Notes: generated by a model from the sequence alone, not told the origin. 64,000 nucleotides of DNA from Thermodesulfobacteriota bacterium (GCA_039715015.1 JBDLIE010000003.1:59201-123200), one strand, 5' to 3'. Positions 2,614 to 64,000 are shown, counted from the stretch's first letter. Numbers and translations: made by a program.

Positions 2614-3195
2614 CTATTTCTTTTCCTCATACATCTTTAAGATAACCACGTCCTTGTTGGGCACATCACCATACATTCCGCTTTGTCCCCTTGGCACTGA
2701 AACAATGGCATCCGCTACATCCATGCCTTCGACAACCTTGCCAAACACTGCATAGCCGTATCCATCCATACGCATGGAACGATGGTCTAAGGACCTATTG
2801 TCATTCACATTGATAAAGAACTGGGCTGTGGCACTGTTGATATCCTGGGTGCGGGCCATGGACAAGGTGCCTCTTTTATTCTTTAAGCCGTTATGCGCCT
2901 CATTCATGATAGGCGGCCTGGTTGATTTTTTTTTCAGACCGGGCTCGAAACCGCCGCCCTGAATCATAAAACCAGGAATGACGCGATGGAAAATAAGGCC
3001 ATCAAAGAAACCATCACGCACATAGGTGCGAAAGTTTTTACAGGTAATGGGCGCCTCTTTGTCAAAAAGGGCAATGGTCATATTGCCCATACTGGTTTCC
3101 ATAATAATTCGAGGTGCGGATTCCTCAGCACATGATAATGCGGGTAAGGAAAAAGAAACGGCAAGAAGAAGCGCAAAGAGTACTTTTTTTGTCAT
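2614..3195 (-). CDS. ppiA: Cyclophilin-type peptidyl-prolyl cis-trans isomerase, exported
   Basis: FHRVIPGFMIQGGG, GTLSMART, SATAQFFIN, YAVFGKV motifs; N-terminal signal peptide. Confidence 0.92.
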   Translation of the reverse strand: MTKKVLFALLLAVSFSLPALSCAEESAPRIIMETSMGNMTIALFDKEAPITCKNFRTYVRDGFFDGLIFHRVIPGFMIQGGGFEPGLKKKSTRPPIMNEAHNGLKNKRGTLSMARTQDINSATAQFFINVNDNRSLDHRSMRMDGYGYAVFGKVVEGMDVADAIVSVPRGQSGMYGDVPNKDVVILKMYEEKK

Positions 3196-3321
3196 GTTGA
3201 AGCCTCATTAAAGTGGTTAAAATTGGGTAAGCATGAAAAAATATTATGAAAATACCATATTTCGATACAAAGTCTTATGAAAGAATTGAGTTTATTCCGT
3301 TTTTTGATTTATTATTTTGCT

Positions 3322-4371
3322 ATGCATAAGCCTTTAGATTTACATCCTGACAACGCACTTCAATGTTCCTATTCTGAGACTATTATCTTCGCCCAAAAGA
3401 TTTTCAGGACAAGCTCTGTTGCCATTGTCACCTGTCTAGTCCTCCTTTCTTTTATCATCCCTCAACGTGATACGGTTTCAGTGGCAAAGGTCCAAAATCC
3501 TACTGAAACTCTTACTGTTAAAGCAAATGAAGTTGAGCCCCCTGACCCCTCTGTGCCATCGTATAGTCCATCATCCTCGATGGATCTTCAGCAGACACTG
3601 GAGAAGTATGGGCTCTGGTCAATAAAGAATAATTCTACCATTGACCCGGTGCTTTTCACCTCCTTCCCTGATAACCTTCACACCTTATCCATTGCTGACA
3701 AGAAGACGACCTTTTTACACACCCTTTTGCCTGTGGCTCTTTATGCAAACCAGATGGTAGAGAATGAACGTTTGCGTCTTTTTGAAATTCTGGCAATGTC
3801 TGGTGCTCTGCCTGGAGATTTCTCATTAAAAGAAATTCCTGCAGCATGGCAAAAGATTCTATCAAATAAGGACAAACAGTGGCTTCTTGGTTTGGCTAAA
3901 CGTTATAAGGCTGAAACCATCGCTCAGCTCAAAAAAAGGGTGCGGCCCGTGCCTGTCAGTCTTCTTCTGGCCCAAAGCGCTTTGGAATCATCTTGGGGAA
4001 CTTCTCGTTTTGCCAGAGAGGGCAATAATCTTTTTGGCATCCGCACCTGGGGTGAAAAAGGACTTGTCCCTGGCGAAAGAGAGACAGGAAGCAAGTTTCT
4101 TGTGGCTCAATACGACACCATTCTTGACTCCGTAAATGCATATATCCTCACCTTAAACAGCCATCACCTCTACGTGAAATTCCGAACCCTTCGCATGGAG
4201 AGCCAGGACACGGAGGTGTTAAGTGGAGGCCTGCTTTTTTATTCTGAAAAAAGAAAGAGTTATGTGACTAAAGTTAATAGAATTATACGTTATAACCGAC
4301 TCAAACGTTTTGACACCCTGCATCTTGCTCGTTATGGAGAGAGCATGGCACCTAAGGTAGCAGTCAATTAA
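3322..4371 (+). CDS. Glucosaminidase (GH73, Bax-like) domain protein with N-terminal membrane anchor
   Basis: LAQSALESSWGTSRFAREGNNLFG motif; hydrophobic segment near N-terminus; start uncertain (ORF open from 3277). Confidence 0.8.
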   Translation: MHKPLDLHPDNALQCSYSETIIFAQKIFRTSSVAIVTCLVLLSFIIPQRDTVSVAKVQNPTETLTVKANEVEPPDPSVPSYSPSSSMDLQQTLEKYGLWSIKNNSTIDPVLFTSFPDNLHTLSIADKKTTFLHTLLPVALYANQMVENERLRLFEILAMSGALPGDFSLKEIPAAWQKILSNKDKQWLLGLAKRYKAETIAQLKKRVRPVPVSLLLAQSALESSWGTSRFAREGNNLFGIRTWGEKGLVPGERETGSKFLVAQYDTILDSVNAYILTLNSHHLYVKFRTLRMESQDTEVLSGGLLFYSEKRKSYVTKVNRIIRYNRLKRFDTLHLARYGESMAPKVAVN

Positions 4372-58309: not shown

Positions 58310-59959
58310 ATGCTAAGCGAACTTCACATTGAAAACCTAGCCATCATTAAAGAACTCACCCTTGAGTTCAAGCATGGTTTTACGGTCTTAACCGGTGAGA
58401 CAGGGGCAGGAAAATCGATCATCCTCCAGGCCATCCATCTTCTCTCCGGCGGCAAGGCCACGGCAAAATTGGTGCGCAGTGGCACCGAACAGGCGATTGT
58501 TGAAGCCCTTTTTGAAATTTCGGACAACTCTCCTGTCCGGCAGCTCGCTGAGGAAAACAGCATTGATTGTGATGACACCCTTATCCTAAAAAGGATCCTT
58601 TCTGCCAAAGGGCGGAGCCGTTTTTATGTAAATAACAGCATGACCACGGCAAAGGTGGTCGGAATGTTGAGCGAATATCTCCTCAGCGTTGCCAGCCAGC
58701 ATGACCATCAACAGCTTCTATCCTCCCGGGCCCACCTTGACTTTGTTGATGCTGCCGGTGACCTCTTGCCCCTCCGCCAGACAGTTACAACTCTTTATGA
58801 AACATGGAGCGCTGCCAGGCAAAAACTTACAGATCTTCAGGGCAGCGAGCAGGACAAAGAACAGCGCAAGGACTTCCTGCAGTATCAGATTGATGAGATC
58901 GAAAAAGCAGCCCTTGTTGATGGTGAAGAAGAGCGCCTGCAAGATGAAAAAAACAGATTACGCAGCTCCACTGAGCTTACAAAACTGGCGTCAGATTCAT
59001 TTGACAAGCTTTACAGCATCACGGATTCTCTAGCCGTTGTCCGCAAAAACCTGGAGCAGGCAGCCAGCCTTGACCCCCTGGCCTTGACGATAAGTGAGGC
59101 CGTTGCCGAACAGAGTTACCTCTTGGAGGATCAACGTTCAGAAATCCGCCATTATATGGAAGCAATTCCCCACGACCCTGGCCGTCTTGAAGAGGTCACG
59201 GAACGCCTTGACACCATCGCCCATCTCAAACGTAAGTATGGAGCGACTATTGGAGATATACTTCTGTTCCTGGCAGAAGCACGGGAGGAACACAGCAATC
59301 TAGAATCCTTAGATCAAGAAATTTCAGAGACCCAGATTCTCGTCAAAAACTCCCTTCAGGATTTAGAGGATGCCTGTTACGGTCTGAGTTCGGCGCGCAA
59401 GAAGGCTGCTGGCGAGCTTGCCACGGCCATCAGCATGGAACTCAAATCGCTCTGTCTAGAAAACAGCTGCTTTGAGATTGCCGTAACCCCTCAAGGTCCA
59501 TCCCGAACCGGCATGGACCACCTCGACTTTCTTTTCTCCGCTAACTTCGGAGAGACAGTTAAGCCCTTGAGCCAAGTGGCTTCGGGCGGTGAGCTCTCGC
59601 GACTCCTTCTTGGTCTTAAATGTGTTCTGGCCAAAAACGATCAGGTAGAAACTGTGATCTTTGACGAGGTAGACAGCGGCATCAGCGGTAAGGCGGCTGA
59701 GTCGGTGGGCACCAAGATCCGTGAGCTGGCCTGCCACCATCAGGTACTCTGCATCACCCATCTGGCCCAGATCGCCTCGCTGGCTGACGATCATTTTCAA
59801 GTCAGCAAATCCATTGAAGATGACCGGACCGTAACTACTATCCAAACACTCGAAGGCCCAACAATTCATGGAGCACTGGCCGCCATGCTCGACGGAAACT
59901 CTGTCACCGATAGCACCCTGGCCTATGTCCAACAACTGGTTGAGCGCAAGACAAAATGA
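58310..59959 (+). CDS. recN: DNA repair protein RecN
   Basis: LTGETGAGKS, ASGGELSR, FDEVDSG, CITHLAQIAS. Confidence 0.95.
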   Translation: MLSELHIENLAIIKELTLEFKHGFTVLTGETGAGKSIILQAIHLLSGGKATAKLVRSGTEQAIVEALFEISDNSPVRQLAEENSIDCDDTLILKRILSAKGRSRFYVNNSMTTAKVVGMLSEYLLSVASQHDHQQLLSSRAHLDFVDAAGDLLPLRQTVTTLYETWSAARQKLTDLQGSEQDKEQRKDFLQYQIDEIEKAALVDGEEERLQDEKNRLRSSTELTKLASDSFDKLYSITDSLAVVRKNLEQAASLDPLALTISEAVAEQSYLLEDQRSEIRHYMEAIPHDPGRLEEVTERLDTIAHLKRKYGATIGDILLFLAEAREEHSNLESLDQEISETQILVKNSLQDLEDACYGLSSARKKAAGELATAISMELKSLCLENSCFEIAVTPQGPSRTGMDHLDFLFSANFGETVKPLSQVASGGELSRLLLGLKCVLAKNDQVETVIFDEVDSGISGKAAESVGTKIRELACHHQVLCITHLAQIASLADDHFQVSKSIEDDRTVTTIQTLEGPTIHGALAAMLDGNSVTDSTLAYVQQLVERKTK

Positions 59960-60960
59960 CCACTGCCCTCGCCCTTTTTTCAGGTGGCCTTGACTCCATC
60001 CTGGCCTGTCGTGTCATTCAGGATCAAGGCATTAAGGTCAAAGCCCTTAAATTTGTCAGCCCTTTTTTTGACTATGACCTCCTGGCCCGGCGCGACGAAT
60101 ATTGCGCAGAGATCCTTGCCAAATATGGAATTGATGTTGAGCTCATTGATATCAGTGAATCTTACCTGCACATGCTGGCAGCCCCTACCTACGGCTATGG
60201 CAAGAATTTCAATCCCTGTGTCGACTGTAAGATTCTTCTGGTCCGTGCCGCCAAAGAGCTGATGGCCAAGTATGAGGCCTCCTTTCTTATTACCGGCGAG
60301 GTAATCGGCCAGCGTCCCATGTCGCAACGCTCAGACACCCTTCGTATTATTGAAAGAGATAGCGGTACCGACGGTATTCTCCTGCGCCCCCTCTGCTGTC
60401 AGGCCCTGAAAAAAACACAGGCCGAGGAACAAGGTCTCATTGATCCCGAAAAACTGCCCCACTTCCATGGCCGCAACCGAACACCGCAGATAGAACTTGC
60501 TAGCCAAATGGGGATCAGCGATTTTCCCTCACCAGCCGGGGGCTGTATATTAACAGAACCAATACGGGCCGCCCGTATTCAAACCCTTTACAATATGGGG
60601 AAAGAAGAACTTCTTACGCCTGAGAATATCCGCTTCCTTCTCCAAGGCCGTCAATATCTCTTTCCATCCGGGGCCTGGCTTACCATGGGCCGCAACCAGA
60701 GTGAAAATATACTTATTGAGTCCCTTCAAATGGACAAGGACTTACTCATTAAGGCCGCAAAAAAACCAGGGCCAAGCGGACTTTTACGATTTAGTCATAA
60801 CGAGGCGGATCATCAACTGGCCGCAGCCATAGTCGCCCGCTATATGAAAAAAGATGATGATTTGGCCCAGGAGATGCGTGTTGTCGAGTCTGATGGTTCA
60901 TCAGATATCATTTCAGTTCGCCCTGCTGTGGATAGTGAGATCAAACCTCTGAACTGGTAG
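59956..60960 (+). CDS. PP-loop tRNA sulfurtransferase-like protein (ThiI/MnmA-related)
   Basis: FSGGLDS PP-loop, NPCVDCK, TGEVIGQRPMSQ, LLRPL, PAGGC. Confidence 0.8.
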   Translation: MTTALALFSGGLDSILACRVIQDQGIKVKALKFVSPFFDYDLLARRDEYCAEILAKYGIDVELIDISESYLHMLAAPTYGYGKNFNPCVDCKILLVRAAKELMAKYEASFLITGEVIGQRPMSQRSDTLRIIERDSGTDGILLRPLCCQALKKTQAEEQGLIDPEKLPHFHGRNRTPQIELASQMGISDFPSPAGGCILTEPIRAARIQTLYNMGKEELLTPENIRFLLQGRQYLFPSGAWLTMGRNQSENILIESLQMDKDLLIKAAKKPGPSGLLRFSHNEADHQLAAAIVARYMKKDDDLAQEMRVVESDGSSDIISVRPAVDSEIKPLNW

Positions 60961-61095: not shown

Positions 61096-61171
61096 GCCGA
61101 TGTAACTCAGTTGGTAGAGTAGCTGATTCGTAATCAGCAAGCCAGCGGTTCGACTCCGCTCATCGGCTCCA
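61096..61171 (+). tRNA. tRNA-Thr (anticodon CGT)
   Basis: 76-nt cloverleaf: acceptor GCCGATG/CATCGGC, D stem ACTC/GAGT, anticodon stem GCTGA/TCAGC with loop TTCGTAA, T arm AGCGG-TTCGACT-CCGCT, 3' CCA encoded. Confidence 0.97.
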
Positions 61172-61278
61172 CTAGTTTCAACGACTTACGCAACACAACC
61201 AGGGGAAACCTCTTCCTTTTTTCTATTTTTTGTGCCAATATTGTCCCATCAACTTATTTTCTTCCTTGGGGTAATTTT

Positions 61279-61916
61279 ATGGCAAGTATTAGGAAAAGAG
61301 GTCCTTACCAATGGCAGGCACGAATACGTAAAAAGGGATATCCAGCCCAGGCTAAAACCTTTTACACTAAAGCTGATGCTGAGGCATGGGTTGCGGAAAT
61401 CGAGTCGGAGATGGTGCGTGGAGTATTTGTAATGAAGAAAAACTTCTACTTAAATCATGCTCAGCCAAACTTCGCCCTGTCATTTCCTTTGCGATAGAAA
61501 CTGCGATGAGACGAGGAGAAATTTCAACTCTTACGTGGAACAACGTTAACCTTTCAGATCGTTCTTTTCATCTCCCTAAAACCAAAAAGGGAGAACCAAG
61601 AACTGTCCCCCTCTCCCCTACAGCTCTTAATATCCTCAAGGCCTTGCCGAGAAACATAAGCGGATTGGTATTTGGCATTAGCGCCGGAAACATTACAAAG
61701 CAAATGAGCAAGACATGCGTAAAAGCAGGAATACAAGACTTACACTTCCATGATTTACGACATGAGGCCACAAGTAGGTTTTTTGAAAACACAGATCTTG
61801 ATGTTATGGAGATTAAAACTATAACTGGGCATAAGTCTTTGCAAATGCTCGCTCGACATAGTCACCTTCGAACTAGCCGCCTTGCCGATCGGCTGGCGGG
61901 AGCAAAAAGGGGTTAG
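61279..61916 (+). pseudogene. Tyrosine recombinase/integrase pseudogene
   Basis: N-terminal MASIRKRG..WQARIRKKG..KTF arm domain joins out of frame near 61430 to the catalytic domain (TAMRRGE, FHDLRHEATSR, GHKS); central domain missing; catalytic Tyr position reads His. Confidence 0.85.
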
Positions 61917-61991
61917 CGTTCAAGCAAACAACTACCCCTTGCCTTAATCAAATCAACTCACTAGTCGAGCCAAATTGATGCAATTAGCGGA

Positions 61992-62498
61992 TTATTTTTT
62001 CTCGGCCAGGTAAAATTTATGCTCCCTATCAAGAAATACAACATAGAATGTATTTTTATCAAAAAAATTGCCTGTTTTGGGGTGTGTTTTCATGTGTTGA
62101 GATGAGGGGATCTTGAAGCCGACAAGCCTGATTTTCGAACCAAGCCTGAAGCGCCCCCACTCTGCCTGATGCGGCACATGTGAAGGCCTAGTAAAGCTTG
62201 ATTTGGCAGGAAATTCACCATAGATAGCGAGTACTTTTAGTCCACCGCCGCCAATTCTCTCATGTAGCCAATAATCAAGAGGCTTGGCCGTATAATCTTT
62301 TAACTTAGCAAACAGCTCGGACAGCTGCTTGTGGGTCCACTCATTGAAGTTTTGTCCTGCAGGTTGACTGTGGACGAAATACGAAAAATTAAATTTGCAA
62401 CGAATGGTCAAATCGTTATCATCATCCTCAATACTCGACAGCTCAGCAAGCCCAGCAAGAAAAGCATCTGCCTTTGCATTCTTAAATTTTCTCCTCAT
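61992..62498 (-). CDS. Hypothetical 168-aa protein, possible RelE-like ribonuclease toxin
   Basis: KFNFSYF, RFRLGSKIRLVGF, FYVVFLDREHKFY; ATGA overlap with the upstream ATPase; fold is inferred. Confidence 0.65.
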   Translation of the reverse strand: MRRKFKNAKADAFLAGLAELSSIEDDDNDLTIRCKFNFSYFVHSQPAGQNFNEWTHKQLSELFAKLKDYTAKPLDYWLHERIGGGGLKVLAIYGEFPAKSSFTRPSHVPHQAEWGRFRLGSKIRLVGFKIPSSQHMKTHPKTGNFFDKNTFYVVFLDREHKFYLAEKK

Positions 62499-63634
62499 AT
62501 TCTTGGCACTCCACCGATCTTCCCAGAGTTGTACACTGGAGCCAAAAGACGATCATTTCTGACAATATCACCTTGGATTTCATCTAGCCGGTAGCCATAA
62601 CTTTCACTTTTATCTTTGTTGATAATGACTGTCCTGTACTTCCCCATATATTCAAGGATATCGGCGCTATGGGTAGAAAATAGCATCTGGGCATTCTTGG
62701 GATTTATTTCCTCGTCATCAAATTGCTTAACCATAATGGGGAGCATGTGGGGGTGAAGGTCAATGTCAAATTCATCCATAACAAGGAGCCCACCGGTTTT
62801 AATGGCATAAATATAATATGGGATAATTTTAAAAAGGGTCTGAGTACCAAGCGACTGGGAAAAGAAAGTGAGAATGTTTTTTTCCACATCTGCATCATGC
62901 GAAAAAATAGGAAAGTAGTTTTCTTCTCCCTCCTCATCTTTTTGCGCGTAGACATTGATGTCGGAGATTCCTAAATCACAATTTTTAATAATTTTAATAG
63001 CTTTTTTTAATACATCAGGGTTGTTGTAATAATATTTTGACATATATTTATGATTATTTGCGAAGTCTACCCTCCCCTGCCATGAAACATTTGTTATTAT
63101 TGAGTCAAAAAAACTATAAACTGGTGCAATAGCCAAAACTTCATATTGATTAGCAGTACTTATTATAGATGCATTGCTTCTTTGCTTAAAGGATTTAAGG
63201 CGAGAAAACTCTTTCGTGCAGTAGGCAACATTGTTGTCTTCGCGATGAAATAGTAACGTTTCTCGTTTTATTTTCCTAAATAGCTTCTCAGATAAAACAC
63301 CCTCTTTTTTTAGGCATAATTCATAGCGGTATGTGATATCATAAATAATGAAATCACAATATAGACAGATTGGGTTGTCGTTGTTGAAAAATGAATCAAC
63401 GACAATTTCATTGTCAGGTTTTTTATTAAATGAATCGCAACAGAAATCTTTCATGAAGGCAATAATTTTCAAAGCGTTAGTCTTCCCTGATCCGTTTGCC
63501 CCTTTTATACAGAGAAGGTTTGAAATAGCATTGCCTCGCGAAATATCTTGAGGACACTGAGGGCCAAGCTCTAATGAAATCTCAATTCCTTCTTTAAAGC
63601 AAAAAAAATTTTCAGCTCCAAATTTCAATAGCAT
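62495..63634 (-). CDS. ABC-type ATPase of the RloA/AbiLi (AAA_15/AAA_21) family
   Basis: ENFFCFK N-terminus, Walker A GANGSGKT, QSLGT signature, Walker B/D-loop MDEFDIDLHP, STH switch, C-terminal YNSGKIGGVP. Confidence 0.85.
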   Translation of the reverse strand: MLLKFGAENFFCFKEGIEISLELGPQCPQDISRGNAISNLLCIKGANGSGKTNALKIIAFMKDFCCDSFNKKPDNEIVVDSFFNNDNPICLYCDFIIYDITYRYELCLKKEGVLSEKLFRKIKRETLLFHREDNNVAYCTKEFSRLKSFKQRSNASIISTANQYEVLAIAPVYSFFDSIITNVSWQGRVDFANNHKYMSKYYYNNPDVLKKAIKIIKNCDLGISDINVYAQKDEEGEENYFPIFSHDADVEKNILTFFSQSLGTQTLFKIIPYYIYAIKTGGLLVMDEFDIDLHPHMLPIMVKQFDDEEINPKNAQMLFSTHSADILEYMGKYRTVIINKDKSESYGYRLDEIQGDIVRNDRLLAPVYNSGKIGGVPRI

Positions 63635-63890
63635 GTCTTTCTCTTTTTGGTTGTTTTCGGTTTGTTTTGTGAATAAGGGACGCGAAGAAACTCACCTTAA
63701 CGACTAAACTGACCGTTTTTGACAAAAAAAGCAACCTAAAACGACTCCATCCCCAGACATAAAAATCTTCCTAAGTAGACTTGATCGCTAAATAAGCACC
63801 GACATAAATCTACCCATGAGTTTTGGGGAAACGCCCTGATAGCGGAGCGTAGCCTTACCTAAAACGATTTGATGGAAAGCCAGAATAGAA

Positions 63891-64000
63891 GAGCCGGTCT
63901 TGGAAAACTGGACAGGTCGTTAAGTGAAAATGCCGTTCCAATCTGTTAACTTTATTTCAAACAGAAAGGAGCAAAACAATGGCAAAGAGACCACGCAGAA
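63891..64000 (+). mobile_element. Left end of an IS3-family insertion sequence with start of transposase OrfA
   Basis: IR-like GAGCCGGTCTTGGAAAACTGGACAG; AAGGAG RBS; ATG 63979 MAKRPRR, cut by the window edge. Confidence 0.6.

Follow-up and report, generated by a model that had tools for sequence, protein, structure and literature searches.

An AbiLi-type ABC ATPase paired with a predicted RelE-fold toxin on an island of a Thermodesulfobacteriota bacterium

Described systems and the gene pair in the window

The described system closest to the gene pair reported here is AarT:AAA of Acinetobacter guerrae, which the available text of Ernits et al. 2023 (PMC10440598) presents as a validated toxin–antitoxin pair made up of the toxin AarT (node D3) and an AAA ATPase antitoxin (node D29). 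According to that text, AarT has an mRNA-interferase fold and no HHpred match, its target is given as mRNA or tRNA, and it blocks translation without its ATPase, which neutralizes it, as determined with a neutralization assay and metabolic labeling. The AlphaFold interface of the two proteins was unconvincing (pDockQ 0.24–0.35), and in E. coli the pair did not protect against the BASEL coliphages. In the network of the same study D29 also pairs with the RloB-like node D44 and D3 also with Panacea, including in Bacteroides uniformis. An earlier note on the DNA analysed here had proposed a new kind of system, a proposal overtaken by this published and validated pair.

AbiL (AbiLi–AbiLii) and PARIS (AriA–AriB) have the ATPase in common with our pair but carry TOPRIM effectors, as far as the available parts of PMC13064643, PMC9122126 and PMC11464382 describe them; the last of these reports for PARIS a release mechanism and an AriB that is only modestly toxic alone. 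Menshen/ptuXYZ (NsnABC) also combines an ABC ATPase with a BECR RNase, but has three genes and a PIN fusion (PMC11980606 and PMC12065111, available text). A literature search covering chiefly non-subscription papers returned no AarT follow-up and no phage defense by a two-gene ATPase–RelE pair, and the available part of PMC8832971 holds nothing specific on the pair.

The window, by which we mean the whole stretch of 64,000 nucleotides analysed (GCA_039715015.1 JBDLIE010000003.1:59201-123200), carries on its minus strand a 379-aa ATPase ORF (62495..63634) followed by a 168-aa ORF (61992..62498). Both are intact, and the tetranucleotide ATGA at 62495–62498 is common to the end of the ATPase gene and the start of the small gene. 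The ATPase displays the motifs GANGSGKT, QSLGT, MDEFDIDLHP and STH and a terminal YxxGxxGGVP; the ORFs, their overlap and these motifs had all been read correctly in the earlier note. Pfam assigns the protein to AAA_21 (E 5.9e-30), and its best PADLOC match is AbiLi (E 6.1e-62 over residues 1–379), followed by AriA (E 1.6e-30), in agreement with the RloA/AbiLi-type ABC ATPase that had been suspected and that is here the predicted antitoxin and sensor. In an alignment of 97 sequences, comprising the window protein and 96 of 119 listed homologues, residues G45, N47, G50 and K51 of the Walker A motif (residues 45–52; 63479..63502, minus strand) and D287 and E288 of Walker B are invariant. The model of the ATPase has a pLDDT of 93.3 and matches the structures of Rad50 and PtuA. 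The GC content is 35.8% in the ATPase gene and 42.4% in the small gene, compared with 50.2% for the genome, and the genome contains no second copy of either gene.

The pair comes after a tRNA-Thr(CGT) gene (61096..61171, plus strand) that represents the integration site. A 51-bp att-like sequence corresponding to the 3' half of this tRNA (61123..61173, plus strand) is repeated with 98% identity on another contig (G000:C40:6057-6107). That copy adjoins a repeat-rich ORF, at least 1823 aa long and cut by the start of its contig (region G000:C40:1-6107), and possibly marks the far end of the island starting at 61123. Tail-to-tail with the small gene lies a tyrosine integrase remnant (61279..61916, plus strand; Pfam Phage_integrase, E 2.7e-22), which consists of two pieces, one N-terminal and one catalytic, that are not in the same frame. 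In comparison with the intact 339-aa homologue of another locus (L009), it is short of about 110 middle residues and has a His where the homologue carries its C-terminal Tyr, so the description of this integrase as dead was accurate.

On the other side of the pair, the left end of a multi-copy IS-like element occupies 63890..64000 (plus strand), as judged from read depth and loose ends. The earlier note had placed an IS here; a multi-copy element is indeed supported by the depth of 403.5 of a 1246-nt contig starting at 63903, about six- to eightfold that of the flanks (47.5–69.7), together with the divergence of other copies of the element at 63889–63890, whereas only 7 codons of its ORF fall inside the window, the end of which is also the end of the contig. 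Going by the motif at the ORF start, the element may belong to the IS3 family. The part of the island at 61144–63919 had a mean depth of 47.5 against 69.7 for the flank, in one run and not readable as a share of cells. At 58310–60960, 5' of the tRNA, lie two genes with a 4-nt overlap that, going by their motifs, presumably encode a RecN-like ATPase and a PP-loop tRNA-thiolation-like protein. A promoter and terminator scan performed at chance level, with 6 sites against 5.1 in shuffled sequences.

Family and fold of the small protein

The 168-aa protein, whose C-terminal pattern RFRL...RLVGF...FYVVFLD..H..Y had been read correctly in the earlier note, matches nothing in Pfam or PADLOC and gives no significant NCBIfam match. 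It is nevertheless not a chance frame, because 279 of 305 candidates are homologues at E ≤ 0.001 and 22 columns are invariant in 90 sequences; the family, collected with a profile, numbers 365 representatives at 50% identity. The model of the protein (pLDDT 93.5) consists of one domain plus an N-terminal helix, and the structural matches span residues 31–167 (61998..62408, minus strand).

The four top Foldseek matches of this model are RelE/YafQ toxins, although nothing was returned at E ≤ 0.001. In a second, independent structural search the top six rows are RelE/HigB toxins with Z from 6.4 to 5.2, led by HigB (Z 6.4, rmsd 3.9, 94 residues aligned), an archaeal RelE (6.3, 3.5, 87) and T. thermophilus RelE (6.2, 2.9, 85). 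Toxins of RelE/HigB/YoeB/YafQ/ParE type or Cami1 make up 25 of the 26 top rows, the family of some titles being assigned by recall, and no fold match reached Z 8. The RelE-type fold that the earlier note had suspected is thus backed with moderate confidence, Z being below 8, and is carried by the agreement among the rows. The family profile found nothing at E < 0.1 among the sequences of solved structures, and an ESM Atlas search with the protein yielded unnamed clusters only. The link to RelE is structural only, because a profile comparison with one HigB sequence also gave nothing.

Residues R116, R124, D157, H160 and F162 are invariant in all 90 homologues and occupy the last strands and the segment following them. 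For RNase-active RelE-like proteins, the available part of bioRxiv 10.64898/2026.08.28.747851 describes basic residues conserved close to the third strand and a His or aromatic residue toward the C-terminus in the active-site pocket. By analogy with this description, the five invariant residues would form the active site of a BECR-fold RNase predicted to block translation.

We also considered whether the small protein might be an RloB/TOPRIM protein, the usual partner of such ATPases. Pfam gives no RloB match, a profile built from 24 RloB partners reaches only E 0.24, and the model is of the RelE fold; the earlier statement that the partner is not a TOPRIM protein therefore holds.

The protein could still act in another way, as an effector that the ATPase activates, a cutter of tRNA or rRNA, or a ParE-like gyrase inhibitor instead of a ribosomal mRNA cutter, and be weakly toxic alone. 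With 168 aa it is far larger than RelE, which has about 90 aa, and it contains insertions; ParE structures are present among the matches at Z 4–5, but the RelE, HigB and YafQ rows outrank them. The modest toxicity of AriB (PMC11464382) and the alternative targets named for AarT (PMC10440598), both as given in the available texts, would suit such an effector, whereas the invariant Arg/Arg/Asp/His/aromatic set fits the description of RNase-active RelE-like proteins and AarT blocked translation when its ATPase was missing. We regard this alternative as unlikely and prefer a RelE-fold RNase toxin.

The relation to AarT can be traced further. The C-terminus of AarT, read from the cloning primer in the available material of PMC10440598, is PKKHT. 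KKHT ends 9 of 267 proteins of the window toxin family; P0211, which has 38% identity with the window protein (E 9e-31), ends PKKHT, and the KKHT end is also found in two further family members partnered with an ATPase. From these circumstantial matches, the KKHT end and the pattern of partners, the window toxin is likely to belong to node D3 (WP_152878172.1). As far as the available text and Dataset S1 of PMC10440598 allow comparison, both systems are two-gene operons with the antitoxin ATPase first (order AT), both antitoxins are AAA_21-type ABC ATPases related to AriA, PtuA and AbiLi (D29 being compared by description), and both toxins combine an mRNA-interferase fold, of moderate Z in our case, with the lack of a sequence-profile match. 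The RloB, Panacea and ATPase partners found independently here also form the same pattern as in that network.

The Panacea:D3 pairs and the MAG6450 family (NF046006) have a homologous toxin domain but a different antitoxin; 6 of 90 and 6 of 39 homologues match NF046006 weakly (best 24.9 bits, short of the curated cut-off of 40 bits) and the window protein does not match it. Menshen likewise joins an ABC ATPase to a BECR-fold RNase, and 2 of 38 toxin-family members match NsnC weakly (best E 3.3e-4). The window pair differs from it in having two genes only, with neither a ParB-DUF262 gene nor an inactive-PIN domain: the stretch from the ATPase gene to the multi-copy element contains no ParB-DUF262 NsnA ORF, and a GmrSD/DUF262 neighbor occurs in only 1 of 35 loci.

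Conservation of the pair and exchange of partners

A survey of gene neighborhoods showed that the two genes form a conserved unit, with pairing in both directions across phyla, as the earlier note had anticipated. Among the best 80 of 138 genome loci of the small protein, the ATPase is directly upstream in 78, while the remaining two (L006 and L023) have no upstream DNA; the 4-nt overlap is kept in 53 of the 78. Of the 18 viral loci, 14 have the ATPase upstream, three have no upstream DNA and one has Panacea. Searches starting from the ATPase covered 80 metagenome and 4 viral loci, 16 partial low-scoring rows being left outside both of the following counts. For ATPases scoring at least 380 bits, a member of the toxin family follows in 26 of 29 (two without room, one with another partner), and for full-length ATPases below 300 bits the partner is RloB in 36 of 39 (two without room, one unassigned). 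Two of the RloB calls were checked in Pfam, with E 7.7e-44 and E 3.8e-6, the latter below the cut-off. The hosts of the pair belong to at least ten phyla.

It could be argued that the genes are merely co-transferred cargo and that the small protein neither is a toxin nor binds the ATPase, given that the evidence for binding is a model. Two-way pairing across at least ten phyla, translational coupling, the pairing of this toxin family with Panacea antitoxins as well and a complex score of 0.65 that the controls do not approach all speak against this, and we consider it very improbable. The earlier note had also inferred selection from the intact ORFs beside the decayed integrase, an argument that is weak when taken alone, and for which conservation across phyla is better evidence.

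The toxin behaves as patchy cargo, because a search of 60 host relatives gave no match and only 2 of 400 other genomes of the host phylum have one; 18 viral contigs carry it. Among 139 neighbors of 35 loci there is no conserved third gene. In these 35 loci an integrase is found at 5, about 6 have another toxin–antitoxin or defense-type gene, and housekeeping genes flank many, all counts being without a background control; of 41 loci with full flanks, 9 have an integrase or a tRNA/tmRNA gene no more than 3 kb away. The defense-island context of the pair is accordingly modest. The tail-to-tail arrangement of toxin gene and integrase recurs in L009, L040, L047 and L069, and the L009 integrase is 46–55% identical to the remnant in the window. 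An Ash-family gene lies near the pair in L010 and phage replication gene A in L069, neighbors that we take to indicate P4/P2-type elements. In L032 a 3' piece of the DNA polymerase I gene (L032:7193-7510) lies downstream of the pair and the polymerase I gene upstream, as if a cassette had entered there. On a conjugative plasmid of Shewanella baltica (L185:4776-8989), the pair is situated between integrase genes and beside a retron Ec67-family gene.

The same toxin family is used with Panacea antitoxins. A homologue of the small protein in Bacteroides phage BI-TP1 (hhalign 99.6%) sits behind a SocA_Panacea gene, and SocA_Panacea precedes homologues of this type in 28 of 28 viral loci, all of them near relatives of each other. 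The connection to Panacea that had been drawn from the C-terminal motif is hereby borne out for distant homologues. On small plasmids of Acinetobacter and Enterobacteriaceae the toxin family is found behind a longer ATPase of 432–471 aa, and this pair is the main cargo of plasmids of 4.6–6.5 kb (L183, L186–L188). In plasmid records of Acinetobacter, Escherichia, Klebsiella, Enterobacter, Salmonella and Citrobacter, 69 match the ATPase and 69 match the toxin homologue, which is annotated only as hypothetical.

Trees of the ATPases were calculated with FastTree and, for 36 picked rows, under LG+G4. In the FastTree tree the window ATPase is on a strongly supported branch of 112 rows, 109 of which are toxin-partnered, with RloB-partnered ATPases as its nearest neighbors, and the Acinetobacter/enterobacterial-plasmid type is placed among other RloB-partnered rows. 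A single clade of toxin-partnered ATPases was rejected with the 36 picked rows (p-AU 0.00012), and the 379-aa window ATPase thereby differs from the 432–471-aa type in lineage as well as in length. Because both trees are unrooted, two captures of the toxin, or one capture with later swaps back to RloB, fit equally. Krishnan et al. 2020 reportedly provide a classification of ABC ATPases that may already list this gene pair. The tested A. guerrae ATPase starts with MLVNFS in the available material of PMC10440598, as the plasmid-type ATPases do; judging by this start it probably belongs to the plasmid type, in which case the lineage of the window would be the one outside that assay.

With AbiL/RloAB the window pair thus has in common the ATPase family, the RloB partners of its nearest ATPases and the gene order, and differs from it in a RelE-fold instead of a TOPRIM partner. 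With PARIS it has in common an ABC ATPase and a small nuclease, but there is no DUF4435/TOPRIM effector, going by the absence of such Pfam and PADLOC matches and by the RelE-type fold, and its ATPase has 379 aa compared with the 55-kDa AriA. In L103, where an ATPase of the window lineage matches at 3001–4140, the next gene encodes 147 aa, misses the family profile and ends in FRL..RLIGF..FYIVW.D, a pattern similar to that of the family; from its sequence this partner is a possible further swap of the effector.

Predicted interface and proposed mode of action

Modeling of the ATPase together with the toxin gave a complex score of 0.65, while the best of three controls gave 0.00. The 0.65 mark is reached by 116 of 157 solved pairs and 2 of 215 mismatched pairs, counts that hold roughly for the present case, in which our own alignments were used. 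Contacts agree to at least 98% between runs, and the partner pLDDT is at least 85. In the model the N-terminal helix of the toxin (residues 3–24; 62427..62492, minus strand) is placed on ATPase residues 6–8, 15–18, 90–92, 339–357 and 372–374, so that the conserved C-terminal element of the ATPase (residues 339–374; 62513..62620, minus strand) provides most of the predicted docking surface. The ATPase columns at the interface have a conservation of 0.82 compared with an average of 0.66, and in the helix N7 is conserved in 86, F13 in 80 and L14 in 73 of 90 homologues. The helix motif N-x5-[FYL][LIM] is present in 77 of 90 close homologues and in none of 7 Panacea-partnered or 3 Acinetobacter-type proteins, a contrast confounded by kinship. 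The model supports binding of the toxin N-terminal helix to the C-terminal element of the ATPase, and this confidently predicted binary interface is a difference from AarT:AAA, for which the one in the available text of PMC10440598 is unconvincing. AriB of PARIS is also described as binding via an N-terminal helix (PMC11464382, available part). The RloB partners of the nearest ATPases (L109–L131) begin with a basic stretch that includes a conserved Asn (MSR[TS]NP[YF]), which by its sequence may be the counterpart of the toxin docking helix.

Because the RNase core is outside the confident interface, the 1:1 model leaves inhibition of the toxin unexplained; inhibition would call for a higher oligomer or for sequestration of the toxin from the ribosome. 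The breakage of the genes was examined in 130 loci. After removal of 3 duplicates and of 27 loci that were edge-cut or missing one of the genes, 100 distinct complete loci remain, in which both genes are intact in 92, the toxin is broken beside an intact ATPase in 7, and the ATPase is broken beside an intact toxin in 1. This asymmetry, an indirect sign of toxicity, differs from expectation by gene length (binomial p 0.0015), with the reservation that it rests on 8 events, some from metagenome assemblies with possible assembly errors and two in related loci.

We propose that the ABC ATPase grips the RelE-fold toxin by its N-terminal helix and keeps it inactive, as the model would have it, and that the toxin, once freed, would cut RNA and thereby stop translation. 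Toxicity, the translation block and neutralization by the ATPase would follow the published A. guerrae pair, and the transfer of function from AarT to the window pair is indirect. That oligomers form, that a phage protein is sensed in an ATP-dependent manner and that the toxin is then released is taken from the analogy with PARIS only, and a role of the ATPase in sensing phage would be of the same inferred kind. We assign a probability of about 0.8 to the toxin–antitoxin part of this proposal, that is, to a type II module of the AarT:AAA kind, and of about 0.5 to the whole mechanism of an ATPase-held RelE-fold translation toxin with phage-triggered release.

The anti-phage trigger is the part that is not well supported, one published phage test of a relative having been negative. 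The pair may instead be a toxin and its neutralizing ATPase with no anti-phage role, an addiction or stabilizing module of islands, prophages and small plasmids in which loss or dilution of the ATPase would set the toxin free. The negative phage screen of the A. guerrae pair (available text of PMC10440598), the related pair carried as main cargo by plasmids of 4.6–6.5 kb, the ratio of 7 to 1 between broken toxins and broken ATPases and a context that is often no defense island are in keeping with such a module. On the other hand, an ATPase of 379 aa whose catalytic motifs are invariant would be costly as an antitoxin that does nothing but bind, its nearest relatives pair with RloB as in the abortive-infection system AbiL, and the pair is intact on an element whose integrase is dead. 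Addiction alone is therefore, in our estimation, a less probable account than release of the toxin upon phage infection, albeit a more probable one than a different activity of the effector.

A wider and still doubtful idea is that RloA/AbiLi-type ATPases might constitute a universal clamp on any effector that offers a short N-terminal helix, that RelE-fold toxins might have been taken at least twice from Panacea-type pairs to replace the TOPRIM nuclease, and that the window lineage could be an unrecognized abortive-infection system made of an ABC-ATPase phage sensor and a translation-blocking RNase.

According to the available text of PMC10440598, AarT:AAA is so far the single validated example of its kind and lacks both a convincing interface and a demonstrated biological role. 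The ATPase lineage of the window is widespread and apparently separately partnered, and from its sequence relationships it seems new with respect to AarT:AAA. Neither Pfam nor PADLOC detects its toxin, and the latter would report an orphan AbiLi only. The predicted interface between N7, F13 and L14 of the toxin and residues 339–357 of the ATPase is specific and can be mutated, making it testable how small RloA/AbiLi ATPases neutralize unrelated nucleases and whether, like AriA, they sense phage. Around one toxin family there is exchange both of the effector, TOPRIM versus RelE, and of the antitoxin, Panacea versus ATPase.
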